From: an uncultured Zetaproteobacteria bacterium
GTDB lineage: Bacteria; Pseudomonadota; Zetaproteobacteria; Mariprofundales; Mariprofundaceae
Reading direction: 5' to 3'
Length of the DNA: 64,000 bases
NCBI GenBank assembly: GCA_964398225.1
Contig: CAYNLY010000001.1
Span: forward strand, 16,975-80,974
Below are positions 1,553-64,000 of this stretch, in pieces. How positions within the stretch are numbered: position 1 is the first letter of the stretch; each line of letters begins with the position of its first letter. The notes under the pieces are model-generated. The model searched no databases and was not told where the DNA came from. It saw nothing but the letters and a program-made list of their open reading frames with translations. The position numbers were made by a program, and so were the translations under genes.

Positions 1553-1585
1553 TAGGCCGATCCAACGGATAAGGAGGTAACCGCC

Positions 1586-1960: not shown

Positions 1961-1961
1961 T

Positions 1962-4801: not shown

Positions 4802-5162
4802 GGATCCCACCGCGCTGATGGAGCACGCCCGCAGCGAACTTGCGCATTGCGAGGCGCTGGTCCGGGCGGGCCGCTGGGATCGGCTTGGAGTTCAGACCGA
4901 AGCCTATCGACAGGCGCTGGATCGCCTGGTCCGGGCATGCCAGTCGGCTCCCGAAGCCGAGAGGGCACGATGGCGGGAGGAACTGGTGCAGCTTTCCCGC
5001 CGCCAGCGCCGGGTGATGGCCCTTGTGGAGCGCGCGATGCAGGATGCGCTTGAAGGTCGTCACGCCATCGGCCAGGCACTGGCTCTGCTGGCCGCCCAGC
5101 GGCGGTTTGTGGCGATGCTTCCGACGGCGCCATCCGCCCCGGCCTACGCCTGCGCAGGCTGA
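4785..5162 (+). CDS. hypothetical helical protein in the FliT position (possible flagellar chaperone)
   Basis: ATG at 4785 overlaps the end of fliS. The 125-aa Ala/Arg/Glu-rich helical protein sits immediately after fliS, where fliT is usually found. I recognise no diagnostic motif. Confidence 0.35.
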   Translation: MSPTPEDPTALMEHARSELAHCEALVRAGRWDRLGVQTEAYRQALDRLVRACQSAPEAERARWREELVQLSRRQRRVMALVERAMQDALEGRHAIGQALALLAAQRRFVAMLPTAPSAPAYACAG

Positions 5163-5233
5163 AGGAGCCGGCCTTTTTTCCACGCTCCCCGGTTGCGCTA
5201 TACTGATGAAAGGCAACGGCCGGCGGAGGGGGC

Positions 5234-14331: not shown

Positions 14332-16224
14332 ATGGCGGATTCGGAACAGGCGTTGAACGGACTTAAGCTTCCTTCCCCTCCGGAAGGCTGGCGCGCGCCC
14401 GCCATGTGGCTTGCGCTGACGCCGCTCGTGTTCCTGCTTCCGATCCTGAATCTGCGTGTCTTTCCCTTTGTTGCGCCCAACGAGGAGCCGAAATGGGCCG
14501 CGCTCGTGCTCTGCGGCCTGGCCATGGGCCTGCTGTTTGCGGCTTCGATCTGGCGGGATCGGGGTTTGCGTCCGGGGTTTTCCTGGCCGGCGGCCGGGCT
14601 TTCGCTCTTTTTCGTCATTCTGTTCGTCGGCGTCTGGATCGGTCCGAACACGGTCGAGGGTCTGATCCGCTTTGCCTTCTGGCTGGCAAGCCTCGGTGTC
14701 TGGCTGGTGGCGGTCTGGGCCTGGCGCGCGAATCCCGCCTGGCGCGACTGGCTGGCCTGGGCGGTGACGGTTGCCGCGGCGGTGTTTTCCCTGCGCTACT
14801 GGTGGGGCTACGTGATCGACTACGGCAAACCGGGCTACAACGTCAGCGTGCTGTTCTCGCCGATCGGGCATGTGAACTTTACGGGCGACGTGCTCGTGAT
14901 GCTCGTGCCGATGCTGATGTGGCTGCTGCTCTTCTTCACGCATCCCGTGGCCCGGGTGCTGAACTGGTTTTCGGTGTTCACCACCGTCACCGTGCTGCTC
15001 GTGGCGGCCTCCCGCGGCGCCTTGGGCGGCATGGTTCTGGGCCTGGTTGCGATGCTTGCCGCGCTTGCGCCGCATCTTGCGCGCCTGCGCGCCGGGATCC
15101 CGCCCTTTCCGAAGGGCTGGATGCCTGCGTTCTGGCTGGGCTCGGCCCTGATCACGGCCGCCGCGGTCAACGCGATGCTGCCCTATCATTACCGGGATCT
15201 CGTTCGGGTGTCCGCCACCCTGGGCGCCGCCGCCGAGGTGCCCGAGCAGGTGACCCTCACACCGGGCGCGCCGCAGCCTCCGCTTGCCGAGTTCTGGGCG
15301 AAGACTTCACCGATTCTGACGACGCGAACGCCGATGTATGCCAGCGCTCTGGCGATGGCGCTGGATGCGCCCTGGCTGGGGCAGGGCACCGGAAACTTCT
15401 ACATCGTCTACCCTGACTGGAGCAACCGCTTTCCGGACTTCCGCGATCCGCTGAGCAACGACCGGACCTTCACGACCAATCCGCACAACGTCGTGCTCCA
15501 GATCGCAACGCAGAACGGATTTCCGGCGACGGTGCTCTTTCTCGCGCTGCTTGCAACATTCTGGCTCAGGCTTGTCGTTGCCGTGTGGCGTCGGGGCGAT
15601 GCCTGGCACGCCGCCGGCCTGATGGCGCTCACCGCCGCAATCTTCGATGCGATGTTCAACCATGTGTTTTTCAATCCGGCCTCGATGTTCACCTTCGCGC
15701 TGCTCGGGGGCGCATGGTGGGCGTCGCTGGAGCCGATGCGCGCGGCACATTTGTCGCTTCCGTCGCCGAAGGTGGCGGCAGCGCTCATCGGACTTGCCAC
15801 GGTGGCGCTCAGCATCTGGCCGCTTCGCTGGGTGGCCAGCGAATGGCATGTGGGCCGGGCGATGGCCATGGCCCGCGCCCCCCAGCTGGCCGCGGCCGAA
15901 TACCGCCGCGCCTATGCGCTCGATCCCTACAACTTCCGCGCCGTGTTCGGGATGATGAGCACGGCCTACATGCAGCGCCGGTTCGACGAGGCGCTGCGGT
16001 ACGGGCTTGAGTTCCAGCGGATCTATCCCTTCAACCCGCCGGCGCTGAACCTCTTGGGCGCGATCTACCTGATGAAGGGGGATCTTCATCGGGCGGAGGC
16101 CACGTTCCGCGAGGCGCTCCGGGTGCTGCCCGGCTACGAGATGGCCGAGCAGAACCTGAAGCGGGTGCTTGCCCTCAAGCGCCCGCGCGCGCCCGCGCCG
16201 GACTACTTGAGAAAGCGCAGATAG
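14332..16224 (+). CDS. O-antigen ligase (Wzy_C) family membrane protein with C-terminal TPR repeats
   Basis: About 10-12 TM segments. The Wzy_C-type loop is SRGALGGMVLGL ... TTNPHNVVLQIATQNGFPATVLFL. The C-terminal soluble region has TPR-like repeats (AEYRRAYALDPYNFRAVFGM..., LNLLGAIYLMKGDLHRAEATFREALRVLPGY). Confidence 0.75.
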   Translation: MADSEQALNGLKLPSPPEGWRAPAMWLALTPLVFLLPILNLRVFPFVAPNEEPKWAALVLCGLAMGLLFAASIWRDRGLRPGFSWPAAGLSLFFVILFVGVWIGPNTVEGLIRFAFWLASLGVWLVAVWAWRANPAWRDWLAWAVTVAAAVFSLRYWWGYVIDYGKPGYNVSVLFSPIGHVNFTGDVLVMLVPMLMWLLLFFTHPVARVLNWFSVFTTVTVLLVAASRGALGGMVLGLVAMLAALAPHLARLRAGIPPFPKGWMPAFWLGSALITAAAVNAMLPYHYRDLVRVSATLGAAAEVPEQVTLTPGAPQPPLAEFWAKTSPILTTRTPMYASALAMALDAPWLGQGTGNFYIVYPDWSNRFPDFRDPLSNDRTFTTNPHNVVLQIATQNGFPATVLFLALLATFWLRLVVAVWRRGDAWHAAGLMALTAAIFDAMFNHVFFNPASMFTFALLGGAWWASLEPMRAAHLSLPSPKVAAALIGLATVALSIWPLRWVASEWHVGRAMAMARAPQLAAAEYRRAYALDPYNFRAVFGMMSTAYMQRRFDEALRYGLEFQRIYPFNPPALNLLGAIYLMKGDLHRAEATFREALRVLPGYEMAEQNLKRVLALKRPRAPAPDYLRKRR

Positions 16225-43583: not shown

Positions 43584-43599
43584 TGGCACGGTTTCTGCT
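43584..43599 (+). promoter_or_regulatory. candidate sigma-54 (-24/-12) promoter upstream of the pilin gene
   Basis: TGGCACG-GTTT-CTGCT against the consensus TGGCACG-N4-TTGCW (one mismatch). It ends about 50 nt upstream of the pilin ATG at 43649. Confidence 0.55.
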
Positions 43600-43648
43600 T
43601 GCCTTCCTGCAAGACCGGCAATGGAGCCGTGACCAAGGAGCAAGGAAC

Positions 43649-44242
43649 ATGAACGAACAGGTGGATTGCTACACCAGCAAGGAGGAGCAGGCCCGCCGCC
43701 AGCGGGGCTTTACGCTGATCGAACTCGTGATCGTGATCGCGATCATCGGCATTCTGGCCGCGTTTATCGCGCCGCGCGGCGGCGAAGTCTTCAAGGATGC
43801 GCAGATTGCCTCGGTCTCGGAGGCGGTTCATTCCCTGAAGACAGCCGTGGCACAGTACGTGGTGAAGAACAAGCAGCTGCCTCCGGCAACCAATCCCGAG
43901 GCTGCACTGATTCAGCAGAAATACCTCGATGGCGCCGCCACCTCGACCGTGGCCGTCGGAACAAGTGCAACGCTTGTCGAAACGGCGGGCGGTGGCACGC
44001 CGCCGGCTGCTGGCGCATTTGATCTCGATGGTGATGGAACCGTTGATACGAAGGCGACCGAACAGGTCATCGAACTTCAGATTGCCGGTGTGCCGGGAAC
44101 GGATGCCTATGCCATCAGCCAGAGTCTCGATGGAACTCTGACGGCTGCGAGCACGACGGTTGCGGATACGAAGGGGCGCGTGACCTATGCAGCCCCGACA
44201 GGGGGGACCACGACCGTCCATGTCTACGTCGACAGCCTGTAA
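43649..44242 (+). CDS. type IV pilin / pseudopilin with class III signal peptide (major subunit candidate)
   Basis: AAGGAG lies upstream of ATG 43649. The 20-aa leader MNEQVDCYTSKEEQARRQRG is followed by FTLIELVIVIAIIGILAA (Phe+1, Glu+5). The mature protein is 177 aa with no Cys and contains a DLDGDGTVD loop. Confidence 0.85.
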   Translation: MNEQVDCYTSKEEQARRQRGFTLIELVIVIAIIGILAAFIAPRGGEVFKDAQIASVSEAVHSLKTAVAQYVVKNKQLPPATNPEAALIQQKYLDGAATSTVAVGTSATLVETAGGGTPPAAGAFDLDGDGTVDTKATEQVIELQIAGVPGTDAYAISQSLDGTLTAASTTVADTKGRVTYAAPTGGTTTVHVYVDSL

Positions 44243-44251
44243 TCCTTAGCC

Positions 44252-44277
44252 CGGCGCCCGCCATCGCGCGGGCGCCG
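44252..44277 (+). terminator. GC-rich stem-loop just after the pilin gene (probable partial terminator/attenuator)
   Basis: CGGCGCCCGC (44252-44261) pairs with GCGGGCGCCG (44268-44277), a perfect 10-bp stem with a 6-nt loop. It starts 10 nt after the pilin stop. There is no U-tract. Confidence 0.45.
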
Positions 44278-44315
44278 ACCCCTTCCAAGCAACTGGACGC
44301 CGGAAAGCGAGGAAC

Positions 44316-45998
44316 GTGATGGGCGCAAACGCAGTGCAGAACCTGGGCAAGATGCGGCTGGGCGACCGGCTGATCAAGCTCGGCCTGATCGACGAGGAAT
44401 GCCTGAAACTTGCGCTGCGCAAGCAGAAGAAGGACGGCATCCTGCTCGGCGAGGCGCTTGTCGAGCTGGGCTTCATCGACGAGGACGTCGTCACCAAGGT
44501 GCTGGCCTCGGACATCGACATCGACTTCGTCGATCTTCGCAATCTCGACGTGGATCCCGAGGCAATCGCCAAGGTTCCTCTGGCTATTGCGCGCAAATAT
44601 CACGTGCTTCCCTATGCGGTCGACGACTCCACCATATATGTGGCCATCGACGATCCCCTGAATCTCGTTCCGCTGGACATCATCTGGAAGCAGACGGGGC
44701 TCCGGGTTCAGCCGGCGGTGGCGCCGCTTGCCGACATCGAGGCCGCGATCGAACGCCATTATTCCTCGGTCGAAACCATCGACGACATCATCGACGAGAT
44801 CATCGAGGGCAAGATCGACGAGCAGCAGCTCGAGGCCCCGGTGGTCCGGCTGCTGGACAAGGTCATCGCGCACGCTGTCCGCCACCATGCCACGGACGTT
44901 CACATCGAGCCGGCGGAGAAAACGCTCGGCATCCGGATGCGCGTGGACGGCCTTTTGCAGGATGTCTGCCTGCTTCCCGTCAATGTATTGGCGCCCCTGA
45001 CATCCCGTGTCAAGATTTTGGCTAAACTGGATCTGTCCGAACGGCGTCTTCCCCAGGACGGCAGCTTCGCCACCCGGATTGGCCATCGCCAGGTCGAGGT
45101 GCGGGTGTCAACCTTGCCAACCATCTATGGCGAGAAGTCGGTGCTCCGGATCCTCGACCGGAGTTCGGTCGAGATGACGCTTGCCGGCATCGAGCTGCCG
45201 TATGCGATGCGGGAGCATCCGGAACAGCGGCTGCATCTGAACGATCCCTACGGGATGGTGCTCGTGACCGGTCCTACGGGCTCCGGCAAGACCACGACGC
45301 TGTATTCGATGCTCAACGCGGTGAAATCGGACGAAAAGGCGATCTTCACGATCGAGGATCCGGTCGAATACCGGATCAAGGGCCTGCAGCAGGTGTCGGT
45401 GCGCGAGGAGATCGGATTCACGTTTTCCAATGTGCTCCGCTCCATCCTCCGGCAGGATCCCGACATCATCATGGTGGGCGAAATCCGCGACACCGACACA
45501 GCCTCACTGGCCGTGCAGGCCGCGCTCACCGGCCATCTCGTGCTTTCGACGCTGCACACGAACAACGCGATCGAGACGGTCTTCCGCCTGATCGAAATGG
45601 GTGTTGAGCCCTACCTGATTCCGCCGTCCCTGCACGGCGTGCTCGCCCAGAGGCTGGTCCGGCGGCTGTGCCCGCACTGCCGCAAGCCGATGCCCGAGCC
45701 GTTCGTCCGCTCGGTGGTCGAGGCGCACGGGCTTGATCCCGATCGCGAATGGGTGTTCTGGCAGCCGGTCGGATGCCGGAACTGCGTGAACGGTTATGCC
45801 GGACGGATCGCGATTTTCGAATGGCTCGACCTGGACGAAAGGTTCCATGAGGTGATTCATCACCGGACGACGCTCGCCGAGCTCGAGCACGCCGCGCTCG
45901 AGGCGGGCTACCGGCCGATGGTCTTCGACGGCCTGGAAAAGGCCGCCGAGGGGCTGACGACCGTCAATGAGGTGCTGCGGGTGACCCGCCATGCCTGA
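44316..45998 (+). CDS. GspE/PilB/MshE-family assembly ATPase with N-terminal MshEN-type domain
   Basis: Walker A GPTGSGKTTT, Asp box, Walker B, and tetracysteine CPHC...CRNC. The N-terminus has RLGDRLIKLGLIDEECLKLALRKQ followed by LLGEALVELGFIDEDVVTKVLASD. The start is GTG 44316 or ATG 44319. Confidence 0.92.
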   Translation: MMGANAVQNLGKMRLGDRLIKLGLIDEECLKLALRKQKKDGILLGEALVELGFIDEDVVTKVLASDIDIDFVDLRNLDVDPEAIAKVPLAIARKYHVLPYAVDDSTIYVAIDDPLNLVPLDIIWKQTGLRVQPAVAPLADIEAAIERHYSSVETIDDIIDEIIEGKIDEQQLEAPVVRLLDKVIAHAVRHHATDVHIEPAEKTLGIRMRVDGLLQDVCLLPVNVLAPLTSRVKILAKLDLSERRLPQDGSFATRIGHRQVEVRVSTLPTIYGEKSVLRILDRSSVEMTLAGIELPYAMREHPEQRLHLNDPYGMVLVTGPTGSGKTTTLYSMLNAVKSDEKAIFTIEDPVEYRIKGLQQVSVREEIGFTFSNVLRSILRQDPDIIMVGEIRDTDTASLAVQAALTGHLVLSTLHTNNAIETVFRLIEMGVEPYLIPPSLHGVLAQRLVRRLCPHCRKPMPEPFVRSVVEAHGLDPDREWVFWQPVGCRNCVNGYAGRIAIFEWLDLDERFHEVIHHRTTLAELEHAALEAGYRPMVFDGLEKAAEGLTTVNEVLRVTRHA

Positions 45999-47205
45999 GT
46001 TTTCCTATGTCGCGGTCAGTCCCTCGGGGGAGCTCGAGCGCGGGCGGCTGAATCTGCCCTCGGAGCGCATTCTGGAGCATACGCTGGCCGAGCGGGGGCT
46101 GCAGCTGATCTCGAGCCGGCCGGCCTGGTCCTTGAAGCCCGGATTCGGCTCCCGGCGCATTACGCGGCGGGACATCATCGAGATGCTGATTCCCTGGCTT
46201 TCGATGGAGAAGGCGGGCGTGCCTCTGCTCGATGCGATCCGCGACTCGCTCGAGGAAATCGAGAATCCCGCGCTGCGCGACGTGGCCCGGAGCATCGCGG
46301 CCGATCTTGAGGCCGGCGAAAGCCTGGTGGATGCCGCGGCGAAGCATCCGAAGGTGTTCGACGAGCTCAGCCTCGGCATTCTGCGCGCCGGCGTGGAATC
46401 CGGGCGCCTGGATGCCTCCTTCGAGTTCCTGATCCGGCACCACACCTGGCTCGAGAAAATGAAAAAGAACGTGATGCAGCTGATGCTGGAGCCGGGGATT
46501 CTGCTCGTCGTGATCGTGCTGTTCATCATCCTGATGTTCAGCTTTGTCGTGCCCCAGATCATGGAAACGGTGGCGATGTTCAATGTTCCGATGCCCTGGC
46601 CCACGCGGATGATGATGCACCTGAATGCGTTCTTCCGTGCCTATGGGCTCTGGGTGCTCGCGGGACTGGGCCTTCTGTTTCTGGCGCTGCCCGCGATGTA
46701 TCTGAAATGGGAAGCGTTCCGCGAGCGGGTGGATGCGTTCAAGCTCCGGATGCCTTTCTTCGGCCCGCTGAACCGAATGATCGTCGGCTCCCGCTTCGCG
46801 CATCACATGTCGGCGCTGTTCCGCTCCGGCATCAATCTCGTGGACGGTCTGGAGATCGCCGCCAAGGCGGTGGGCAATCGCGTGGCGGAAAAGGAGATTC
46901 TGGAAGCGCGGGATCGCGTCGTGCAGGGGCAGACGGTCTACGAGGCCATGAGCGCAACCACCGTGCTCAGCCCGATGGTGCTGCGCATGCTCAAGGTTGG
47001 CGAGGACTCCGGAAACATCGACGGCACGCTCGATTACGTCTCCGAATACTACGACGAGGAAGTGCCACGCCGGATTGCGCGGGCGTTCACGCTGCTCACC
47101 CCCGCGATCACGATGGTGCTTGGTGTCGTCGTGCTGTTCATCGCGCTCGCGGTGTTCATGCCGATGCTGGACATGATCGACAAGGTCCACTCGATGCGCC
47201 ACTGA
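45991..47205 (+). CDS. GspF/PilC/MshG-family inner-membrane platform protein
   Basis: 404 aa with two T2SSF repeats and three TM segments. The start overlaps the ATPase stop by 8 nt. Confidence 0.88.
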   Translation: MPEFSYVAVSPSGELERGRLNLPSERILEHTLAERGLQLISSRPAWSLKPGFGSRRITRRDIIEMLIPWLSMEKAGVPLLDAIRDSLEEIENPALRDVARSIAADLEAGESLVDAAAKHPKVFDELSLGILRAGVESGRLDASFEFLIRHHTWLEKMKKNVMQLMLEPGILLVVIVLFIILMFSFVVPQIMETVAMFNVPMPWPTRMMMHLNAFFRAYGLWVLAGLGLLFLALPAMYLKWEAFRERVDAFKLRMPFFGPLNRMIVGSRFAHHMSALFRSGINLVDGLEIAAKAVGNRVAEKEILEARDRVVQGQTVYEAMSATTVLSPMVLRMLKVGEDSGNIDGTLDYVSEYYDEEVPRRIARAFTLLTPAITMVLGVVVLFIALAVFMPMLDMIDKVHSMRH

Positions 47206-47223
47206 CAGGGAAGGGAGAAAGAA

Positions 47224-48381
47224 ATGAAGCAGAGCAAGGAACGGGGATTTTCGATGATCGGCATCGTCATCGCGCTGGCGGTGATCGGGATGCTTCTGGC
47301 CGCGGTGATGCCGAAAACCCTGAAAAGCCGTTTTCTTGACATCCAGCTCGAAGAGGTGGCGCGTCTGGGCGCATTGCACGAGGCGCTGACCAGCTACGTG
47401 ATCGCCAATCACCTTGTGCCCGGTTCGGCCACATGGGCCCAGGCGATCAGCCAGTATGCCAATGAATCGCCGCAGCAGATCGTCGTCTCCGGGATGAATC
47501 AGCAGGTGATCTATCTGTATCCGGACGACTTCATCGCCGCCGGCAACACGCTGCCCTACGATCAGAAGGCCAATGCGCAGGCGGGCAACTTTCTGACCGC
47601 GGCCCCCGTGGATCCGCGCATCATGATCGTCTCCAACCTTGGGCAGACGGCGCTGGCCACGACTTCGGGCGCGATGCCGGCGGCCACGTTCGACGCGGTC
47701 TGGAACCAGACCGGAACCTTTCCCGCCGAGCTCACCGAGGGCGATACGCTGAAGATCGAACGGGTGAATCTCAGCGGCCTGTTCGAGCCGGTGACGCTGA
47801 ACAACAACGATCCGGCAACGAGCGCAAGCTTTGCCGTGGACGGCCAGCCCAATCCGCCGGCCACGCTGGCCGCGGCCTCGAGCATGACGCTGCACCTGAT
47901 CCGTTCCACCCGTCTCGATCTGTACGACGGCGCCGGCGCGATCTACTACCGGCACACGGTCACCGGACCCGATTCGTTCGTGTTCAGCGGCGGTGTCTGG
48001 GGCGGCACGCTGGGCGGCGCCGGCGGTGGCGGCACCGGCGGGGGTGGCGGCACCGGCGGTTCCGGAGTGGGCCCGATCTTCGACCAGACCCAGGGCGGCA
48101 GGCTCGTCAACTGGAATCCCGATCCGGCCTGCAGTCCGACCGGAACGACCTACAACCTGACGGTCCAGAACAACACGGCCAAGGACACCTACTGGGTTTA
48201 TGCCGGTGTGGGCGGTGTGCCCACCACGCTGGGCAAGGTGAAGAACGGCAAGACCGGCACTTTCCCGGTGGCCGAATGCGAGCTCTACCTCGTCGTACCC
48301 GAGGTGAAGCAGAACGGTTCCCAGCCCGTCGTCTACGCCGGCTACATGCCGCACAACAATCTGACCGTGACGGCCCCCTGA
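47224..48381 (+). CDS. large minor pilin-like protein (prepilin-type N-terminus lacking Glu5, poly-Gly linker, C-terminal Cys-pair domain)
   Basis: The leader MKQSKERG is followed by FSMIGIVIALAVIGMLLAAV, with Gly at +5 rather than Glu. The linker is GGTLGGAGGGGTGGGGGTGGSGVG. The C-terminal module (about 105 aa) has two Cys residues (ACSPTG...VAECELY). Confidence 0.7.
   Translation: MKQSKERGFSMIGIVIALAVIGMLLAAVMPKTLKSRFLDIQLEEVARLGALHEALTSYVIANHLVPGSATWAQAISQYANESPQQIVVSGMNQQVIYLYPDDFIAAGNTLPYDQKANAQAGNFLTAAPVDPRIMIVSNLGQTALATTSGAMPAATFDAVWNQTGTFPAELTEGDTLKIERVNLSGLFEPVTLNNNDPATSASFAVDGQPNPPATLAAASSMTLHLIRSTRLDLYDGAGAIYYRHTVTGPDSFVFSGGVWGGTLGGAGGGGTGGGGGTGGSGVGPIFDQTQGGRLVNWNPDPACSPTGTTYNLTVQNNTAKDTYWVYAGVGGVPTTLGKVKNGKTGTFPVAECELYLVVPEVKQNGSQPVVYAGYMPHNNLTVTAP
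48025..48060 (+). repeat. 18-bp tandem duplication inside the Gly-linker coding region
   Basis: GGTGGCGGCACCGGCGGG (48025-42) is followed directly by GGTGGCGGCACCGGCGGT (48043-60), 17/18 identical. Each copy encodes GGGTGG. Confidence 0.85.
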
Positions 48382-49706
48382 TGGACCGGCTGCACCTGCT
48401 CTGGATCAACGACCAGGTCACGCTGTTCACCGACAGCGGGGAAGTCCGCACGGACTCGGGCTGGTCGGAGCCGGATGCGGAGCGCCTGGGCCTTGCCATC
48501 CGGCAACTGGGCTTTAAGGGCAAAAGCGCCGTCGTCGTATACGAGGGCGAATACATCTCCCATCACGAGCTCGAAGTGCCTCCGCTCGACGATGCGATGA
48601 CGCTTGCGCTGATCCAGAGGCGCATGCCCACGGAGCTTCAGGGCGCGGATCCTGCCGGCAGGGTGGGATTCATGCGCGCGGCCGACAATCGGCGCGTGCT
48701 GATCGAGGTGCTGGATTCCCGTTTCTACGATGCGCTCGTCGAGGCGTTCCGCGTCAACGGCATGACGCTGGATCTGGTATGCGGTCTGACACCCGTGCTG
48801 GCCCGAATGGCGGCGGGATCGGGACACGATTCGCCGATGCTGGTCGAGTTCGCCGACCGTGATGCGGGCATGAACTTCATGCTTTACTACCATGCCGAAA
48901 AGCGCAGGCCCGCGCTGTTCCGTGTCGCCCCTCTGGCCTGGGATCCGGAGCACCTCGAGCAGGACATGCGGCGCAGCATCCAGCTTGGACGGCAGCTGTT
49001 TGCGGGGCGGGAGCCGGAGGTGTTTCTCGTCGGCGATCCGGAGTTTGTCACCGAAGGCGTCACCCATCTGGGCGAAGCGGAGGCGCTGCTGGATGCGGTG
49101 GCCAGACTTCCGGTGCAGAGCACGGCCAACCTGGTGCCGCCCGAGGATCGGGGCATGGCGAAGCAGCGCCTGCGCATGTATCTGGCGCTGGCCCTGCTGG
49201 TGCCGTTCGTGCTCGGCAGTCTGGCGGTGCATATCGTGCTCGACCACAAGATCGGCGAATACCGCGCGGCGCTGTCCGACATCCGCGAACTGATGCACGA
49301 GCGCGAACGCTATCTGGAGCGCATCGGCGATTACGAACGGCGCAACCGCTTCATCCGGGATGCCGGGCGGACCGACATCCTGCCGGCTGTCGTTCTGGCC
49401 AATGTCGGCAACGATCTTCCCTGGGATTTCACGCTGCGCCGTTTCGAGTGCGGGCGAGCGGGCCCGGTCGGGCGGATGGACGGCGAGGTTTCCTTCCGGC
49501 TCGGTGGCGAGGTCGATACCGACCCCGTGCATGCACCCGAGCTGCTGCGCCGGCTCGAGGCCAGATTCGGGCAGCCGCCCTACAACGGCCGCGTGATCCA
49601 TTCCTGGCGCGAATACTGGCTGAAGGCCATCCAGACATGGTCCAACGCGCGCAATGGGGGCGGGGCGGGTATTCCCTTCGAGATCGAGGTGGCCCTCCAT
49701 GAATAG
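48381..49706 (+). CDS. bitopic assembly protein, PilM-PilN fusion-like (MshI/GspL-like architecture)
   Basis: ATG 48381 overlaps the previous stop (TGATG). The protein has a cytoplasmic N-domain of about 270 aa, a single TM segment (MYLALALLVPFVLGSLAVHIVL), a coiled-coil and a periplasmic domain of about 120 aa. The call rests on architecture and gene position, not on a diagnostic motif. Confidence 0.55.
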   Translation: MDRLHLLWINDQVTLFTDSGEVRTDSGWSEPDAERLGLAIRQLGFKGKSAVVVYEGEYISHHELEVPPLDDAMTLALIQRRMPTELQGADPAGRVGFMRAADNRRVLIEVLDSRFYDALVEAFRVNGMTLDLVCGLTPVLARMAAGSGHDSPMLVEFADRDAGMNFMLYYHAEKRRPALFRVAPLAWDPEHLEQDMRRSIQLGRQLFAGREPEVFLVGDPEFVTEGVTHLGEAEALLDAVARLPVQSTANLVPPEDRGMAKQRLRMYLALALLVPFVLGSLAVHIVLDHKIGEYRAALSDIRELMHERERYLERIGDYERRNRFIRDAGRTDILPAVVLANVGNDLPWDFTLRRFECGRAGPVGRMDGEVSFRLGGEVDTDPVHAPELLRRLEARFGQPPYNGRVIHSWREYWLKAIQTWSNARNGGGAGIPFEIEVALHE

Positions 49707-50313
49707 GACGGCCCTGCAGCTGTTCGCCCGGCTCAAGCGCCGGCGCCGGCTGATCGGGCGCCTGCTCGTGGGCGGAACGCTCGTGCTGGCCGTGCTGCTT
49801 GCGCTGGACATCTACTTCCGCCTGATTCCCGAAACCCGCGCGATGACCCGCGCCATTCAGGACGGCAGCCAGACCGTGGCCGATCTGGACCTGATCAAGA
49901 GGCGGGCGATCGAGCTGGAACGGGCCTTCGACAGGCAGGCATTCGAGCGCGCGGAGCGCCGCGTGTTCGACGATGTGGATTCCGTATCCGCATTCATCAA
50001 TGCACTGACCGAGTCATTGAAGTCAGCGGGCTTCTTCGTCAATACGCATGTGGCGCCGCTTCGGGACGAATCCTTCGATGGCGAGCAGCGATACGGGCGT
50101 CCGATCCAGCTGATCGCGCTCGATCTGACGATTCGCAATCCGAGGGTGCGGCCCGACACGCACGAACGGCTTCTCGAAGTGCTGCGCCGGATTCCGGACC
50201 TCGGGCGCAAGGCGGATCTGGTTTCCCTGCGCATCGAGGGCAGCGGCGCGGACCTTGCTTCGGCGTCGATGCGATTCCTTCTCTGGAGCAGTTTCCGGTA
50301 TGAACCGAGATAG
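49699..50313 (+). CDS. bitopic assembly protein, PilO/MshJ/GspM-like
   Basis: The ATG overlaps the upstream gene by 8 nt. The protein has a short basic N-terminus, one TM segment (LLVGGTLVLAVLLALDIYF), a coiled-coil and a periplasmic domain. The call is by architecture and position. Confidence 0.5.
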   Translation: MNRTALQLFARLKRRRRLIGRLLVGGTLVLAVLLALDIYFRLIPETRAMTRAIQDGSQTVADLDLIKRRAIELERAFDRQAFERAERRVFDDVDSVSAFINALTESLKSAGFFVNTHVAPLRDESFDGEQRYGRPIQLIALDLTIRNPRVRPDTHERLLEVLRRIPDLGRKADLVSLRIEGSGADLASASMRFLLWSSFRYEPR

Positions 50314-50752
50314 GCTGAAGCAGGCGCTGGCGGGGGTTCTCGTGATCGCACTGATTGCGGTTCTTGCGGTGCGTTTTTCCGGGTCCGCACCCAAGCGCGC
50401 CGTGCCACAAGCTTCGATTGCCGGCGGGAGCGCCCCTGCCGCGGCCGGCCCCACCGGCAAGGCCGGGGCGGTCGGCCACCGGCACGCCCTGCACATGCCA
50501 GAGCAGTTGCTGCGCAATCCGTTCGCCCCTCGATCGGGAAGCGGCAGGGCCGTTGCGGTTCCCGACTTCCGGCGGCTGCATCTGGACATGGTGGCGGTGG
50601 GGCCCAACCGGAAACAGACCTTCGCCCGCATCAACGGCCGCATCGTCCATGTGGGCGGCGAAGTCGGAGGCTATCGGGTGCTTGCGATCCGCAGCCGCGG
50701 CGTCTGGGTGCAGCGCGCCGGCGAAAAGAAACGTTTCATTCCAATCTTCTGA
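50300..50752 (+). CDS. PilP/MshK/GspC-HR-like secretin-interacting protein
   Basis: The ATG overlaps the upstream gene by 14 nt. The protein has an N-terminal TM segment, an Ala/Pro/Gly linker and a C-terminal beta domain (ARINGRIVHVGGEVGGYRVLAIRSRGVWVQRAG) that resembles the GspC HR / PilP fold motif. Confidence 0.55.
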   Translation: MNRDRLKQALAGVLVIALIAVLAVRFSGSAPKRAVPQASIAGGSAPAAAGPTGKAGAVGHRHALHMPEQLLRNPFAPRSGSGRAVAVPDFRRLHLDMVAVGPNRKQTFARINGRIVHVGGEVGGYRVLAIRSRGVWVQRAGEKKRFIPIF

Positions 50753-50766
50753 ATCAGGGGAGTGCC

Positions 50767-52344
50767 ATGAACATCCGAATCCTTCACCTGAGCATCGCCA
50801 TTCTGGCCCTGGGGCTGATGGCCGGATGCGCAAAGAAACCGCCGAGCCCCAAAGCGGGTCCGACCGATCTCAAGCTGAGCACGCATCTGGACGAGGCAAT
50901 GGAGAAGCTCAAGCAGGACTCCGCGAAGGCGCTGCTGGCGATGGCCGACGTCCGGCGTCAGCACGAGATGGAGATGCGTTCCCGGAAAACCCGCGTGGAG
51001 ATCGACGACGACCGGCTTTATTCGCTTTCGGTCCGCCGGATGCGGATCAAGACGGCGCTGGCGACCTTCGCCCGCAAGTACGGTCTGAACATCGTGCCGG
51101 ACCCGGACGTGACCGGAAGGGTGACGGTGTCCTTCTCGAATCTCACGCTCTCGCAGGCGATGAACGCACTCCTGGACGCTCAGGGCTACTATTTCGAGAA
51201 ACAGGGCGACATCATCCGCGTCCGCAACCTCGAAAGCCGGATCTTCGAGATCAACTATCCCCGGTTCGTGCGCAGCGGCGAGGGCAACGTCGAAACGAGC
51301 ATGACCTCGTCCTCGACAACCGGCGCCGGCGCAACGGGAGCGGGCGGCGGCGCGACCGCTTCGCAGGCTGCCGGCACAGGTTCCGCCGGTACCGGCGGCG
51401 GGGGGATGTCCTCCTCGAGCGTTTCGATCCGGAGCAGCGACACGATCGACTTCTGGGGCGAGCTTGAATCGAACCTGAAGGCGCTGCTTGCGGGCGACGA
51501 CGAGCGCAGCCATTACACGATCAACCGCCTGTCCGGCATCGTCAGCGTCACCGCGCGTCACAGGACGATGGAGCGCATCGCCCGATATCTGGACTGGGTG
51601 AACGATTCCGTGCACCGGCAGGTCGTGATCACGGCGCAGATCATCGAGGTCAGCCGCAACGACACCGACAAGTTCGCGGTGGACTGGGAACGGGTCACGA
51701 ACCGCCTGTCGCTGACCTCGGCCGTGGCTTCGGTGACGCCCTTTGGCGTCGTGACCGGCGCGCCCGCCTCGCCGACGCTGCTCGGTCAGTATCAGAACAA
51801 CAACCGGACCTTCAAGAACATCATCGAGGCGCTCAAGGAGCAGGGCGACCTGCGCATCGTCTCCAAGCCCCAGGTGCGCACGATCAACAACCAGCCCGCG
51901 ATCATCAAGGTCGGCACCGACCGGACCTTTTTCCGTGTCGAGAGCGTGACGGACACGACGACGGCGGGCTCGACGACGACGACCAACGACATCCCCCAGA
52001 CGATCACCGTCGGCCTGGTCATGAGCATCACGCCGCAGATTTCCGCCGACGGAAAGGTGACGCTGGACATTTCCCCGGTCATCACCGCACTCAGCGGCGA
52101 GGAGGTGTCCGCGAACGGATCCAAGGCGCCGATCCTGGACATCAAGCAGGTCTCGTCGGTGGTCTCGGTCCGCTCCGGTCAGCCGGTCATCATCGGGGGG
52201 CTGATCAAGCACGAAAACTCCCGCGCGGACCGGAAGGTTCCGCTGCTCGGCGATATCCCGCTGATCGGGGGCCTGTTCCGCGGCACGCACCGGATCAAGC
52301 AGTCCAGCGAGCTGGTGATCTTCATTACGCCGTACGTGATCTGA
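50767..52344 (+). CDS. secretin (GspD/PilQ superfamily), lipoprotein, MshL-like
   Basis: Lipobox LGLMAG-C (signal peptide MNIRILHLSIAILALGLMAGC), an N-domain, and the canonical C-terminal secretin block (VPLLGDIPLIGGLFR...ELVIFITPYVI). A Thr/Gly/Ala/Ser-rich insert (SSSTTGAGATGAGGGATASQAAGTGSAGTGGGGMSSSS) is also present. Confidence 0.9.
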   Translation: MNIRILHLSIAILALGLMAGCAKKPPSPKAGPTDLKLSTHLDEAMEKLKQDSAKALLAMADVRRQHEMEMRSRKTRVEIDDDRLYSLSVRRMRIKTALATFARKYGLNIVPDPDVTGRVTVSFSNLTLSQAMNALLDAQGYYFEKQGDIIRVRNLESRIFEINYPRFVRSGEGNVETSMTSSSTTGAGATGAGGGATASQAAGTGSAGTGGGGMSSSSVSIRSSDTIDFWGELESNLKALLAGDDERSHYTINRLSGIVSVTARHRTMERIARYLDWVNDSVHRQVVITAQIIEVSRNDTDKFAVDWERVTNRLSLTSAVASVTPFGVVTGAPASPTLLGQYQNNNRTFKNIIEALKEQGDLRIVSKPQVRTINNQPAIIKVGTDRTFFRVESVTDTTTAGSTTTTNDIPQTITVGLVMSITPQISADGKVTLDISPVITALSGEEVSANGSKAPILDIKQVSSVVSVRSGQPVIIGGLIKHENSRADRKVPLLGDIPLIGGLFRGTHRIKQSSELVIFITPYVI

Positions 52345-59559: not shown

Positions 59560-62500
59560 TCAGTTTTCGCCCAAAAAGCCCTTGAGGTCGGTCTGGTCGA
59601 ACTTGAAGCGGAAGCGCAGGTACGGGCCCTGGCGGGTGTATTCGCTGGCCGCGAAGTCCTTGTCGTAGAAGCCGGCGAAGTTGTAGCCAAGGCTCAGCCA
59701 GAGGTTGTCCACCAGCCGGTGGCCGACGGCCAGGCCGTAGGCCGGCGCGAACTGCCCGCCGTGCCAGGTGTGGAAGAGGCCCCCCTGGGCGGAGATGTCC
59801 CAGCTTTCGTTCAGGTCGTAGGTGGCCTGAAGGCCGAGCACGTCGGTGAAGGCGTTGAATCCGCCTTGGGTGAACTGTTCGCGCGCCCACTTCGCGCCGT
59901 AGTGGAAGCCGAGCTGGAAGCTCGCGGTGGGCTGCCAGTTGCCGGCCAGGTTGTTGATGTAGCGCCAGCTGGAGATGCTCGTGGCGGGATCAAGGCGACG
60001 GTCGTACAGCGCTTCAAAACGGTCGAGCAGCATCCAGCCGTCGTAATCCGGGCGCCAGGCAAGCGCCAGCGAGCCGCCGGCGGTCGTCGTCCGGGTTCCG
60101 CCCGTGCCGCGGGTGTCGCTCCACATCATGCTGAACTGCGTGCGCAGCCACTCGGCGGGATCGCCCTGGATGCCGGCCGAGAGGTTCAGCTTGCGGTCGA
60201 TGGCCGCGGTGCGGTACTCGACGCGCGTGTTCCAGACCCAGTCGCCCGGGCGGTAGGTGAGCCCGGCCGAATAGGCCGTGAAGTCGTTGTCCGTGCCGAG
60301 GCCGCTTGTGCCCGATGCGAGCGGGACGTTCAGGTTGAGCGGCGTCGCGCCCGGATGGCGGAGCGTCTTCGTCCGGTCGAAGCCTAAGTCGATCGAAAGC
60401 CGCTCGGTCGCCTGCCAGGTCTGCTGGAGCCCCACGTTCGCAAAGCTTCGGGGTCCGCTTTCGCCGAGCTGCTGCTCGTAGCTCGTCGAAAGCTGCGCGC
60501 CGTTCCAGGGCCGCGTCTTCACGCCCAGCCGGGTCGTGGCGCTGTTCTGCAGGTCGCCGACGGTCCATTCGTGCGTCGCCGACAGCGTCGTTGCGTCGGT
60601 CAGGCGGTAGTCGGCGCCGATGCTGGTCCGGGTCGGGAAGTCCACGCTGTTCGTGCCCTTGCCCAGGTTCTGTTCGCGGTTGACCTGCAGCGAGAGCCGG
60701 TCGGTCACCTGCACGCCGGCGCCCGCCGTCAGCTGATTCGAGCGCGTCCGGTTGCCGGCGCCGTCCCGGTCGCGGACCGAACGGGCGCCGAGCTGCGCGT
60801 TGAAGCGCCCGTTCTGCCAGCGGGTCTGCGCCTGCGCCATGTCCCGGCGCGCGCCGGTGCCGAGATTCTCCTGCCGGAAGCCTTCGCCCGTGACGCTGAG
60901 ATGCTCGGTCGCGCGGAGCTCGGCCTGCGCACCGATCTTGCGGGTCGCATCCTCGCTGCCCAGCGTCTGGCCGAGGCCGAAGCCACCGTCGAGCTGGCGG
61001 GCGTAGGCCTGGGCGCGAACGCGTTGGCCCGTGTGCGTCACCTCCGCCTTCCAGGCTTTCCTGCGGGCGTTCGCCGCCGTGTCGCTCTGGGCGAGCTCGG
61101 CCTTGAGTTCGGTGCCCGCGCCCACACGCAGCGTGGCGTCCACGCCGGCCAGCCGGTTGTCCTTGCCCAGCTGGCCTTCCTGAACGAAGCTCGCGCCGAG
61201 CTCGAGCGAATCGGTCGGCTTGAAGCTTGCGCGTCCGCCGAAGTTCGTCAGCTGATCCTTCCGGTCGTCGGCCTCGTACTCGACGCGGATGTAGATCGGG
61301 TTGAGGTTCGCGTCGTGCGCCTGCACCGGCTGCTTGAAGAACAGCGTGCCCGCGATGTAGTCGATGTCGTAGTCCACGTGCCGCGTAAGCTGCCGGGACT
61401 CCAGAATCACCTCGCTGCGGAAGCGGTCGCGCGTTTCGACGAACACGGTTTCGGAGTTCGCGAGCACGTTCTTGCGCGACAGATGATACAGCCCGCTCGT
61501 GCCGTCGCCGCGGATCTCGTCCTTGACCTTGGTCTGGCTCGTGCGGCTGGCGAACGCCGTGTAGCCGAAGCGCTTGCCGCGATATTCGGACTTCAGGCCG
61601 TTCAGCGTGCGCGAGTAGCGCGAAAGCTCGGTCACCGTAAGCCCTGTGTCGAAGTCGCCGAACATCGCGTAGAAGGTGTCGCGCTCGATCTTCAGATAGA
61701 GCTTCGCGCGGCTTGAGGCGTCGTAGCGCTGCTCGGTCGCATCGCCGTAAATCGTGTAGTACCGGTTCGGATCGATCGTCTGCCGGATGCTGTTGCCGAC
61801 CACGCCCTTCGTCTTGGCCGTGTCGTAGGCGAGCGTGAGCAGGAAGTCGCCCTTCACCCGGCCCTTCGCGTAGAACGCGAGCCGGCCGTCGCGGTAGTAG
61901 CCGTCCTTCTCGGACTGCTTCGTGATCGGCTGGATGGCGCCCTTGAGGCGGTTGTAGCCCAGCGTGCCCTCGCCGAAGCCGACCAGGATCCAGTCGCGGG
62001 TTTCCGGCCGGATCCAGGCCTTGACCTCGCGCACGCCGTCTTCGAGCCGGAAGCGGAGCGTGACCTCGCCGGCCTGCATCGTGGGCTTGAGCCGGATTTC
62101 GGCGATGCCGCCGGGGCCGACGCGGTACTGCGGCTTGTAGTCGGCCGAGCGCATCGGATCGTTGGGAACACCGGCCGGGAAGTAGGGCGGCGCCACCTCG
62201 AAGTCGCCGATCATGCCCTCGCGGGCGGGGTTACCCGCGCGGTCCAGCATCCGCACGGCAATGACCGGCTCGCTGCGCCCGTCGGCGACGGCGCGGGTGT
62301 GTTCACGGTCCCATTCGACAATCGCCGGGCCGCCGGCGTAGACGACCGTGCGCTCGATCCGGGCGAGCTCCTTGCCGTTGTTGTCTTCAATCGTGGCCAC
62401 GAAGCGGTTCTCGCCGTCCTTCAGGTGCACGTTGCGCCAGTGGCTGATGGCAATCGTTCCGGCCGGATTGCGCGTTGCGCCCTCGAAGAACAGGGAGCTC

Positions 62501-64000
62501 ACCGCTTCGCCGTTGAGCCGCAGCCGCACCTTCTGGCCCGGCTTATGCCGGATCAGAACGTGCGTGGCCGGGATCGACGGCAGATCGGTTTCGGCCGGAT
62601 AGAGCCACGCCGGCTCGGCCGAGGTCTGGCGCGCAAGCCAGGCCTTCACGTCCGAGGGCTTGGGCGCTGCTACGGAAGCCTTCTTCGGAAGCGGGGCGCG
62701 CTCGTTCCAGTCGCCATGCGCCTTGGCCTCGCCCTCCGCGTGGGCGGAGCGAATTTCGGTGTCGAGGATCCGCCGCACCTGGGCGGCGTAGACGTTGACT
62801 TCGGTTCGGCGGTTCAGGGCACGGCCCGCGGCGGTCCGGTTCGAGGCGATCGGCCGGCGAGCGCCCATGCCCTTGACCGTCATCTGCTCGGGCGCAAGCC
62901 CCAGCGCCTGCCGCAGGTAGTCGGCCACCGAGCGCGCGCGCGCCTCGGACAGCACCTGATTGTTCGCGAAAATCTTGCGATGATCGGGGCGGATCCGGCG
63001 GTTGTCGGTGTGGCCGATCACCTCGATCCGGGTGATTTCGAGCTTCTTCAACTCGTTCACCAGAGCTTCGAGCTTGCCCATCATCTCGGGTTTCAGATCC
63101 GCGCTCAGCGTGTCGAAGTTCAGGTGCAGATCCACGGTTCGGGCCAGCCGCTCTTCGGCAAGTTCGTCGTGAATCGTATTCACCGCAAGTCCCGTGCGCC
63201 CGTTCGGCGTGCCCGGAGAGGCGAATCGGGCGTAGGCCACCGCCTTCTTGTCGCCGGGTTCGCCGTCGCCGGCAAGCGCCAGCCGGATCACATGCTCGGG
63301 CCTGGCCGGATCGAGTTTCCAGACGAGCCCGGTGATCGTCTGCTCGGGCTCGGCAGGATTGCCGTCCACGGTCGCGGTTCCCTTCACATAGTGCCAGCCG
63401 GCCGGGGGCAGATAGACGCCTTCGAGGCGATCGAGCCGCACCTTGTCTTCGTGCCGGATCGTCACCGTTGCCCAGACGCGCGCGCCGTCGGTGGAAAGCG
63501 CGTGATCCACGCTCAGCCGCGCAGCCGGCGGCTCGCGCCGGATCAGCCGGAAGTTCGCGCGCCAGATGCCTCCGCCACGCACCTCGACGAACTGCGAGAA
63601 CGCCCGGCCGGCAAAGCGCGTGTTCGGAAGCGGGGCGAGTTCGTACTGCCGGTGCAGCGAGTCGAGATCAATCTGCACCACATGCGTGCCGGGCGTAACC
63701 CCCTCGAAGTGGTAGAAGCCGTTTTCATCGGTCACCGTGAACGTCCCGTCCTCGAGGAACACCTTGACGCCGGCCACGCCTTCCTCGCCGGGATCGTTCC
63801 AGGCGTTGCCGTCCGTGGCCGGATGCTTGCCGTCCGCGCGCCAGCCGCCGTCGACGAACACGCGACCGACGATGAAGCCCTTGGTTCGAATCAGATCGTC
63901 GACGATCTCAAGGCTCGCGGTTGCGCGGTTCGAGCCGACCGGAAGTCCCGCGCGCTGCCCCGTAGCCGTCGCCGTATTCACGGCCGTCCCGATCCGCGCG
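59560..64000 (-). CDS. giant multidomain outer-membrane-associated protein, N-terminus outside window (Cna-B/SdrD-like + OmpA-like + Ig-like + about 810-aa beta-rich C-terminal region)
   Basis: The reading frame stays open to the window edge, and the GTG at 63981 is probably internal. The recognisable modules are:
- Cna-B/carboxypeptidase-regulatory-like module GVKVFLEDGTFTVTDENGFYHFEGVTPGTHVV (about nt 63667-63879).
- OmpA_C-like module IEVIGHTDNRRI...NQVLSEARARSVADYL...NRRTEVNV (about nt 62782-63129).
- Big_1-like segment AVADGRSEPVIAVRMLDRAGNP.
- Long C-terminal region of alternating-hydrophobic beta-strand character, ending YLRFRFKFDQTDLKGFLGEN. Confidence 0.7.
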   Translation of the reverse strand, partial: ARIGTAVNTATATGQRAGLPVGSNRATASLEIVDDLIRTKGFIVGRVFVDGGWRADGKHPATDGNAWNDPGEEGVAGVKVFLEDGTFTVTDENGFYHFEGVTPGTHVVQIDLDSLHRQYELAPLPNTRFAGRAFSQFVEVRGGGIWRANFRLIRREPPAARLSVDHALSTDGARVWATVTIRHEDKVRLDRLEGVYLPPAGWHYVKGTATVDGNPAEPEQTITGLVWKLDPARPEHVIRLALAGDGEPGDKKAVAYARFASPGTPNGRTGLAVNTIHDELAEERLARTVDLHLNFDTLSADLKPEMMGKLEALVNELKKLEITRIEVIGHTDNRRIRPDHRKIFANNQVLSEARARSVADYLRQALGLAPEQMTVKGMGARRPIASNRTAAGRALNRRTEVNVYAAQVRRILDTEIRSAHAEGEAKAHGDWNERAPLPKKASVAAPKPSDVKAWLARQTSAEPAWLYPAETDLPSIPATHVLIRHKPGQKVRLRLNGEAVSSLFFEGATRNPAGTIAISHWRNVHLKDGENRFVATIEDNNGKELARIERTVVYAGGPAIVEWDREHTRAVADGRSEPVIAVRMLDRAGNPAREGMIGDFEVAPPYFPAGVPNDPMRSADYKPQYRVGPGGIAEIRLKPTMQAGEVTLRFRLEDGVREVKAWIRPETRDWILVGFGEGTLGYNRLKGAIQPITKQSEKDGYYRDGRLAFYAKGRVKGDFLLTLAYDTAKTKGVVGNSIRQTIDPNRYYTIYGDATEQRYDASSRAKLYLKIERDTFYAMFGDFDTGLTVTELSRYSRTLNGLKSEYRGKRFGYTAFASRTSQTKVKDEIRGDGTSGLYHLSRKNVLANSETVFVETRDRFRSEVILESRQLTRHVDYDIDYIAGTLFFKQPVQAHDANLNPIYIRVEYEADDRKDQLTNFGGRASFKPTDSLELGASFVQEGQLGKDNRLAGVDATLRVGAGTELKAELAQSDTAANARRKAWKAEVTHTGQRVRAQAYARQLDGGFGLGQTLGSEDATRKIGAQAELRATEHLSVTGEGFRQENLGTGARRDMAQAQTRWQNGRFNAQLGARSVRDRDGAGNRTRSNQLTAGAGVQVTDRLSLQVNREQNLGKGTNSVDFPTRTSIGADYRLTDATTLSATHEWTVGDLQNSATTRLGVKTRPWNGAQLSTSYEQQLGESGPRSFANVGLQQTWQATERLSIDLGFDRTKTLRHPGATPLNLNVPLASGTSGLGTDNDFTAYSAGLTYRPGDWVWNTRVEYRTAAIDRKLNLSAGIQGDPAEWLRTQFSMMWSDTRGTGGTRTTTAGGSLALAWRPDYDGWMLLDRFEALYDRRLDPATSISSWRYINNLAGNWQPTASFQLGFHYGAKWAREQFTQGGFNAFTDVLGLQATYDLNESWDISAQGGLFHTWHGGQFAPAYGLAVGHRLVDNLWLSLGYNFAGFYDKDFAASEYTRQGPYLRFRFKFDQTDLKGFLGEN

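Follow-up and report, generated by a model that had tools for sequence, protein, structure and literature searches.

Positions 43584-52344 of the window, by which we mean the whole 64-kb stretch of Zetaproteobacteria DNA analysed here, are one real, intact operon of eight genes for a type IV pilus-like surface filament. The operon probably encodes a complete envelope-spanning type IV filament machine, reduced to eight genes and likely producing an adhesive pilus, of a lineage related to the mannose-sensitive haemagglutinin (MSHA) pilus; we interpret the system as a sister of MSH, divergent and reduced, and not as a type apart from all those known. We regard it as an undescribed variant and not as a full MSHA member, because its conserved gene set is reduced, its single minor pilin lacks Glu5 and its proteins form separate clades. 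The ten elements that an initial annotation had listed on one strand are all present on the plus strand:

43584..43601 (+): sigma-54-type -24/-12 promoter element, TTGGCACGGTTTCTGCTT, about 48 nt 5' of the pilin ATG
43649..44242 (+): major prepilin, 197 aa; N_methyl 2.7e-10
44251..44276 (+): GC-rich hairpin in the pilin-ATPase spacer; 10-bp stem, no U tract
44319..45998, or from 44316 (+): assembly ATPase of the MshE/PilB/GspE type with N-terminal MshEN; T2SSE 1.4e-128, MshEN 2.3e-22
45991..47205 (+): inner-membrane platform protein, GspF/PilC/MshG family; T2SSF in two stretches, 2.6e-49
47224..48381 (+): single large minor pilin 'X', 385 aa; N_methyl 1.7e-4, 21.5 bits against a cut-off of 21.2
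48381..49706 (+): GspL/MshI-like fusion protein, 441 aa; no Pfam match, profile and fold matches
49699..50313 (+): bitopic inner-membrane protein in the PilO/GspM/MshJ position, 204 aa, placed by position, size and topology; no Pfam match
50300..50752 (+): bitopic protein in the PilP/GspC/GspB/MshK position, 150 aa; no Pfam match, GspC_delta 1.5e-4
50767..52344 (+): outer-membrane lipoprotein secretin, MshL-like, 525 aa; STN, Secretin_N_2 and Secretin domains, lipobox LMAGC

The operon and its proteins

All eight open reading frames (ORFs) have a coding-type composition (G+C at third codon positions, GC3, of 0.74-0.88), and the compact, translationally coupled organisation that had been claimed is confirmed at the junctions, which were read directly: the ATPase and platform genes overlap in ATGCCTGA at 45991-45998, the minor pilin and fusion genes meet in TGATG at 48379-48383, the fusion and PilO-position genes overlap in ATGAATAG at 49699-49706, and the PilO- and PilP-position genes share 14 nt (50300-50313). 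The ATPase probably starts at ATG 44319, because its copy in the database (P0058) has 559 residues. The setting between housekeeping genes is as first described, with gmk, rpoZ, spoT, ridA and rpmB upstream and a Crp-family regulator, an SBF (BASS) transporter and DUF455 downstream. In tblastn searches of the 64-kb window no PilT, second T2SSE-family ATPase, PilD/GspO, MshM/GspA or MshN was found, the Aeromonas MshM and E. coli GspA queries returning nothing significant, and no third prepilin motif is present there: the window has just two, one of them in the major pilin. The initial annotation was therefore right that prepilin peptidase, PilT/PilU, MshM and MshN are missing and that there is only one minor pilin; these absences are those of the 64-kb window, part of an 83-kb contig.

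The secretin, described earlier as an MshL-like lipoprotein, is a lipoprotein and resembles MshL. Its STN, Secretin_N_2 and Secretin domains are arranged as in Aeromonas MshL, its best hidden Markov model (HMM) score is with MshL, and its lipobox is kept in the Zetaproteobacteria relatives and in canonical MshL. Scores are 245.5 with the MshL equivalog (TIGR02519, cut-off 250.2), 178.1 with GspD (cut-off 351.35), 155.6 with PilQ (cut-off 284.35) and 161.2 with the PilN-type model (cut-off 287.65), genuine Aeromonas MshL reaching 279, 170 and 138 with the first three. Neighbour-joining (NJ) trees with bootstrap were built with reference loci from Aeromonas caviae (MSHA, L014), Legionella (MSH-type, L012), Comamonas odontotermitis (type II secretion system, T2SS; L015), E. 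coli (gsp and hof), Acinetobacter (pilBCD) and an R64-type type IVb pilus (T4bP); distance-based and of small sampling, they show separateness and not exact deep position. In them the ATPase, the platform protein and the secretin fall into well-supported clades of their own. A 96% clade unites the secretins of the family with canonical MshL, an Opitutaceae secretin and R64 PilN, leaving GspD and HofQ outside, and within it canonical MshL falls outside the 89% subclade that contains the window secretin. As a separate observation, the best secretin match in the plasmid database (31% over 80%) lies at 11851-13515 of L013, a plasmid of Opitutaceae bacterium TAV5 (CP007054.1); the matching ORF (about 555 aa) has practically no annotation, and the Verrucomicrobia plasmid that carries it is rich in hypothetical genes.

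The ATPase has the MshEN domain attributed to it, and the cyclic di-GMP (c-di-GMP) motif model NF053729 scores 52.2 against a cut-off of 38. With PilB and GspE it reaches 534.7 (cut-off 675.65) and 519.9 (cut-off 630.25), Aeromonas MshE 526 and 524 with 73.6 for the c-di-GMP motif, and Comamonas GspE 570.4 and 634.9, the latter a pass, with no motif match at E <= 1e-20. The first c-di-GMP motif (R13-Q36) exactly fits RLGxxLIxxGLIxxxxLxxxLxxQ, the reference motif with its Arg and Gln being that of Wang et al. (PMC5013675), and the ATPase is thus possibly under c-di-GMP control; the MshEN module is not exclusive to MSH ATPases. Three places in the Aeromonas record match the ATPase, the best being MshE (40.3% identity over 99%). 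The platform protein scores 260.7 with GspF and 216 with PilC, both under cut-off, and forms with its relatives a clade of its own (100% bootstrap), which L008 joins at 76%; no sequences in the trees are more distant than the R64-type ATPase and platform protein. Overall, the secretin, ATPase and platform protein of the window score on the curated models almost as genuine Aeromonas MshL, MshE and MshG do.

The 441-aa fusion protein comprises an actin-like cytoplasmic domain of PilM/GspL type (residues 1-250), a transmembrane segment and long helix (259-330, the single membrane-spanning segment being 264-289) and a PilN-like, ferredoxin-like periplasmic domain (334-439). A word-indexed search with it returned two matches, itself and one relative, and a full HMMER scan 54 cluster representatives of about 460 aa. 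The family profile matches Myxococcus PilM (3jc8_M, 3.9e-6) over its N-terminal half and PilN (3jc8_N, 0.012) over its C-terminal part; the AlphaFold2 (AF2) model, built on 46 sequences, has a mean confidence (pLDDT) of 91.9, and Foldseek aligns it to PilM (5eou, 3e-10), to the cytoplasmic domain of GspL (4pht, 1.5e-9, TM-score 0.63) and to EpsL (1yf5, TM-score 0.68). These profile matches, model and fold matches support the proposed label of a PilM-PilN fusion resembling MshI and GspL. The protein has the GspL-type bitopic architecture, a feature common to MshI and fused PilMN, and its family shows only marginal collinear matches to the Aeromonas MshI1 and MshI2 profiles (E 0.005 and 0.027).

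Family or fold could be assigned for seven of the eight proteins. The 204-aa product, with a single transmembrane segment (17-46), is kept in the same position in L001-L006, L008, L011 and L022; the earlier label 'PilO/MshJ-like' holds for its position, size and single-segment topology but not for homology, none being detectable to PilO, GspM or MshJ. The 150-aa protein has an N-terminal transmembrane segment, a conserved RNPF motif and a C-terminal HR-like beta domain, and within its family Pfam T2SSB is matched by three of eight members (best 1.8e-5) and CdsD_C by four of eight (best 2.9e-7); with the GspC_delta match, these features place it in the PilP/GspC/GspB/MshK class. Its match to the Legionella protein at the place of MshK is weak (0.004, with a very small database searched), and neither the PilO- nor the PilP-position family matches the Aeromonas MshJ and MshK profiles.

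The major pilin has a 20-aa leader ending in G, the mature N-terminus FTLIELV with Phe as residue 1 and Glu5 present, and a mature length of 177 aa without Cys. The GspG model scores 42.3 bits (cut-off 88.85) and covers only the N-terminal 71 residues. Among the homologues from L002, L009, L010 and L022 the leader measures 11-23 aa (20, about 21, about 23 and 11 aa for four of the pilins) and the loop FDLDGxxxxDT is invariant; the C-terminal half varies among relatives. Side by side, the pilins of L002 (137-727) and L009 (9327-9926) show a Cys pair seven residues apart (C-TPPAAG-C) before the DLDG loop, and those of the window and L010 have no Cys there; the Cys-free window pilin with its DLDGxxxxD loop presumably recalls the Ca-stabilised GspG. 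A conductive 'e-pilus' was considered and is ruled out, as aromatic residues make up 5-6% of the pilin and the quoted threshold is 9.8% (bioRxiv 10.1101/668343).

The minor pilin carries the motif GFSMIGIV, with Gly in place of Glu at +5, and Glu5 is missing from all five of its homologues (40-100% identity), which also keep the two Cys of the C-terminal domain. This domain of about 90 aa, of beta structure, follows a Gly-rich linker at about 260-293. The AF2 model is of moderate confidence (pLDDT 64.8), with a helix at 6-62 and then beta-sandwich domains; against the PDB, Foldseek found generic beta-sandwiches only (PepT1 extracellular domain, pVHL; TM-score <0.2) and no GspK, TcpB or CofB, and BLASTP gave no match to E. 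coli or Comamonas GspK, so that the missing Glu5 is the one trait it has in common with GspK. Since PilK/GspK-class minor pilins always lack Glu5 and are the most apical subunits (PMC13533445), the minor pilin most likely sits at the tip. More distant X homologues (L005-L008, L022) retain Glu5, and in L005 and L007 an extra ORF lies directly 5' of the large pilin-like gene, the C-terminus of the L005 ORF resembling that of the large pilin-like protein.

The promoter and stem-loop reported upstream and downstream of the pilin gene are both where they had been placed. The element TGGCACGGTTTCTGCT at 43584-43599 fits the -24/-12 consensus of sigma-54 promoters, a pattern which even in relaxed form occurs only twice in 128 kb (both window strands). 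Comparable elements lie 5' of the pilin in three of the four related loci examined, namely L002 (TGGCGCGGTTTTTGCT), L009 (TGGCATCTTCCATGCT) and L022 (TGGCACACAAATTGTA), and none was found at the matching place in L010. The L022 operon (8-5987 of metagenome contig Ga0156536_1115) is directly preceded by two PAS histidine kinases, the first a hybrid, a Sigma54_activat response regulator of NtrC/PilR type and a STAS protein; no sigma-54 activator of this kind is encoded in the window. The pilin-ATPase spacer folds at -33.8 kcal/mol (z = -1.98), and the stem-loop, whose GC stem is followed by no U tract, differs from a canonical intrinsic terminator and may act as an attenuator or stabiliser.

Conservation in related loci

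The same block recurs in relatives, among them iron-oxidising Zetaproteobacteria and some further uncultured lineages: the order pilin-E-F-X-MN-O-P-Q is observed, whole or as far as the contig reaches, in eight loci (L002, L003, L004, L006, L008, L009, L010 and L022, with GC contents of 31-66%). These represent at least six lineages, with identities of 60% down to 19% for the MN protein and of 90% down to 19% in pairwise comparisons among the conserved loci. The nearest ATPases (90, 76, 61 and 57% identity) come from metagenome-assembled genomes (MAGs) labelled Zetaproteobacteria or Mariprofundaceae, or from metagenomes, and the remainder are at most 47% identical; the window also shares ilvA-pabC-...-holB-metG synteny with a Mariprofundaceae MAG. 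In L002, L003 and L009 the eight-gene set sits in differing genomic contexts, and neither MshM nor MshN was found in the sequence around these three loci or around L022 (9 kb upstream, 6 kb downstream).

A distant marine Nitrospira relative (L011) has the order fusion, 192 aa, 199 aa, secretin, AAA_22, TPR. The AAA_22 protein shares 36% identity with Aeromonas MshM (1e-46), and a TPR gene in the MshN position occurs in this locus only. On the same Nitrospira-type contig (2996-10437) the genes in mshL-M-N order precede those for a FIST protein and a PAS hybrid kinase, and the cluster includes Ca. Nitrospira salsa WP_454064237.1. Two further observations were made while comparing loci. In the low-GC relative L005 a lipoprotein-like ORF with repeats of about 110 aa lies directly 3' of the secretin gene (4972-6168) and is cut by the contig end; its product could be a cargo or an adhesin. 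The reference L014 (NZ_AP026896.1), filed in PLSDB as 'plasmid pKAM479_3', is 4.94 Mb long, carries a full and essentially unannotated Aeromonas caviae MSHA locus and is apparently a chromosome, not a plasmid.

The searched literature yielded no described Zetaproteobacteria pilus of this type and no newly named type IV pilus subtype that matches; papers on Zetaproteobacteria mention Tad pili or generic pilus genes only, and the data of Denise et al. (2019, PMC6668835) include no Zetaproteobacteria.

Position among known filament systems

The resemblance to MSHA (Vibrio, Aeromonas; mshHIJKLMNEGF-BACDOPQ) that had been pointed out stands for the I-J-K-L-like order of the last four genes and for the MshEN module, but not for the ATPase and platform trees, in which the clades are separate from MSH. 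It can be extended to the secretin architecture with its best HMM match to MshL, to the sub-threshold PilB/GspE pattern of true MshE, to the lack of prepilin peptidase and PilT in the locus and to the MshM-like and MshN-like genes of the distant Nitrospira family member. Peptidase and PilT, whose lack had been presented as an anomaly, are indeed absent from the window, but this is no anomaly since MSH loci as a rule lack both (Denise et al. 2019, PMC6668835). The differences are equally concrete: no MshM, MshN or MshF in the operon; one Glu5-less minor pilin against the MshB/C/D/O/P set (PilI/J/K homologues) and large MshQ of MSHA; pilin, ATPase and platform genes placed before the alignment genes in a single operon; a long pilin leader; counterparts of MshI1 and MshI2 fused into one GspL-like protein; undetectable or marginal homology in the MshJ and MshK positions; and separate ATPase and platform clades, with a secretin sister to MshL.

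Several findings weigh against an MSHA-related pilus: (i) the secretin is just under the MshL cut-off (245.5 versus 250.2); (ii) Comamonas T2SS GspE is 41.2% identical to the ATPase over 99%, as similar as MshE (40.3%), and in the trees the Zeta-type ATPases form their own 100% clade apart from Aeromonas and Legionella MshE (88%), while the platform protein is not grouped with MshG; (iii) the second c-di-GMP motif of the ATPase (L42-D65) has Leu and Asp where Arg and Gln are expected, so that binding may be weak or lost; (iv) the 204-aa protein has no Pfam, NCBIfam or PDB profile match, and hhalign against MshJ, GspM and HofO gave nothing significant; (v) MshM and MshN are absent from the window, MshM being mandatory in the TXSScan MSH model and the gain of MshN being described as the origin of MSHA; (vi) the order E-F-...-L-M-x-D is also that of the Comamonas T2SS, and this T2SS-like order together with the GspL-like fold keeps a secretion system in play; and (vii) the peptidase, any PilT, the regulator and further minor pilins have to be assumed, 64 kb of the genome being visible. 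As regards the missing mshN, MSHA has been portrayed as a type IVa pilus (T4aP) minus PilT plus MshN, the gain of MshN being the step that gave rise to it (Pelicic, PMC10191384). The statement that the operon fits no canonical gene set is accordingly right in that it is a lineage of its own, undescribed in the searched literature, and too strong in that its core proteins are classifiable and score like MshL and MshE.

Likenesses to the two pilus classes proper are partial. Like those of the T4bP (TCP, CFA/III, R64 thin pilus), the operon is compact and single, and it encodes a prepilin with a long leader, only one minor pilin, a large one, and a lipoprotein secretin with STN, R64 PilN falling in the same 96% clade; in contrast to them, its ATPase and platform protein are very distant from those of R64, its secretin misses the PilN-type model, its mature pilin starts with Phe, its alignment protein is of GspL type where T4bP use a TcpR/D/S inner-membrane sub-complex (PMC10191384), and it has no peptidase gene, usually found in T4bP operons. 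From the T4aP (pilA, pilBCD, pilMNOPQ, pilT) come to mind the sigma-54 control of the pilin, the PilS/PilR-like two-component system beside the L022 operon, the M-N-O-P-Q logic of the alignment complex and the overall assembly mechanism, but the operon is a single locus without PilT/PilU or PilD, PilM and PilN form one protein, the secretin is of another type than PilQ, the PilB equivalog is missed and there is no FimU-PilVWXY1 set.

It is tempting to go further and to see in the operon and its relatives a distinct, unnamed type IV filament subtype that branched beside MSHA and has the smallest diderm gene set known, a reading that is possible but doubtful. Such a subtype would cover the Zetaproteobacteria MAGs, L004/L006, L005/L008/L022 and perhaps the marine Nitrospira, and its gene set would be a pilin, a Glu5-less minor pilin with a fused tip domain replacing PilI-J-K(-Y1), a fused L, two small alignment proteins and a secretin.

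A minimal T2SS-like system, in which the pilin would form a short periplasmic pseudopilus pushing one or a few cargoes through the secretin, is unlikely, although it accounts for a good deal. The succession of E, F, pilin(s), fused L, M-position, small HR-type protein and secretin is that of a T2SS (gspE-F-G-H-I-J-K-L-M-x-D), as in Comamonas odontotermitis L015 with its 41.2% identical GspE; PilT is lacking from both, and both ATPases carry an MshEN-like extension at the N-terminus; the fusion protein superposes best, when normalised by target length, on the cytoplasmic domains of GspL and EpsL (TM-score 0.62-0.68), the PilP-position protein matches GspC_delta and T2SSB, the minor pilin is Glu5-less like GspK (PMC13533445), the pilin has no Cys and an invariant DLDGxxxxD loop, and the repeat-rich lipoprotein encoded after the L005 secretin could be a cargo. 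The secretin itself speaks against it, being short (525 aa), of MshL type and in a 96% clade without GspD (GspD 178 versus 351), and the T2SS equivalog cut-offs are all missed by the operon proteins, for GspD as for GspG (42.3 versus 88.85, N-terminus only) and GspE (519.9 versus 630). Moreover, GspH, GspI and GspJ were not found in the window, the locus has no GspO, no candidate cargo gene adjoins the window operon, and the major pilin, which is not GspG, is encoded first with its own sigma-54 promoter and hairpin, suggesting a large excess of pilin. Because of this non-GspG pilin with its promoter, the MshL-type secretin and the lack of GspH, GspI and GspJ, a surface pilus appears more likely than a secretion pseudopilus.

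The compactness of the operon could also be an artefact of the window, an ordinary MSHA being split over loci with MshM, MshN, MshB/C/D/O/P/Q-type pilins and MshF encoded elsewhere. The published MSH model is indeed multi-locus, with mshA a loner and MshM mandatory (PMC6668835), 64 kb of an 83-kb contig are visible, and the Nitrospira relative has MshM-like and MshN-like genes. We consider this improbable: the eight-gene set is found without mshM, mshN and extra pilins in the sequence around L022 (9 kb upstream, 6 kb downstream) and in L002, L003 and L009, in differing contexts, its core proteins fall in clades distinct from Aeromonas and Legionella MSH, and its alignment proteins show hardly any relationship to MshI, MshJ and MshK. 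That we see the remains of a type IV pilus system, decaying or silent and no longer building a filament, is most improbable, because the absence of several usual components from the window and the degenerate second c-di-GMP half-site are set against eight intact ORFs with coupled junctions and a GC3 of 0.74-0.88, an order and content kept across lineages at identities of 90% to 19%, a Glu5-less motif and two Cys in all five minor pilin homologues and a high-confidence model of the fusion protein.

Predicted assembly, neighbouring genes and significance

For a reduced MSH-like pilus, a working scheme can be drawn from the established model of type IV filaments. An enhancer-binding regulator from another locus would activate the sigma-54 promoter and drive strong transcription of the major pilin, and the GC hairpin would lower read-through into the seven translationally coupled machinery genes. 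A prepilin peptidase supplied from elsewhere in the genome would cut after Gly-1 of the long pilin leader and of the 385-aa minor pilin, and the latter would prime the fibre at its very tip and display its tethered, disulfide-bonded C-terminal domain. The hexameric ATPase would dock on the platform protein and on the actin-like domain of the fusion to power the extraction and polymerisation of pilins, and this motor would be linked to the secretin, where the fibre is predicted to exit, by the PilO-position and PilP/GspC-like proteins together with the periplasmic portion of the fusion. Assembly probably responds to c-di-GMP through the MshEN module, as it does with Vibrio MshE. The output would be an adhesive attachment pilus, in a lineage nearest to the relatives labelled Zetaproteobacteria or Mariprofundaceae.

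Other genes of the window deserve mention. A flagellin gene and a gene for a long FliD cap protein (821 aa) lie at 654-4304 (+), and the organism is therefore probably also flagellated. The 630-aa protein encoded at 14332-16224 (+) has a Wzy_C domain (O-antigen ligase family) and C-terminal TPR; the Wzy_C family also contains pilin O-glycosyltransferases. An ORF of more than 1470 aa at 59560-64000 (-), probably cut by the window end, has SdrD_B-like and OmpA domains and likely encodes a cell-surface protein. Finally, a 547-aa ORF at 9940-11583 (-) has a strong coding signal (GC3 0.86) and no Pfam match at E <= 1e-5.

According to current models, a ternary I-J-K complex of minor pilins primes most T4aP, T2SS and MSHA filaments, often with a large adhesin as its cap (PMC13533445). 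The operon, conserved in diderms and apparently sufficing with a single Glu5-less, domain-tethered minor pilin, would be a natural test case for minimal priming. The practical value of the finding will stay modest as long as there is neither a cultivable host nor a heterologous system. In 2019, MSHA-type machinery was known from Gamma- and Epsilonproteobacteria and Chrysiogenetes (PMC6668835), and its range is now extended to Zetaproteobacteria and Nitrospira-type lineages. For the surface-dependent iron-oxidisers, the operon provides a candidate attachment organelle, sigma-54-controlled and possibly responsive to c-di-GMP.

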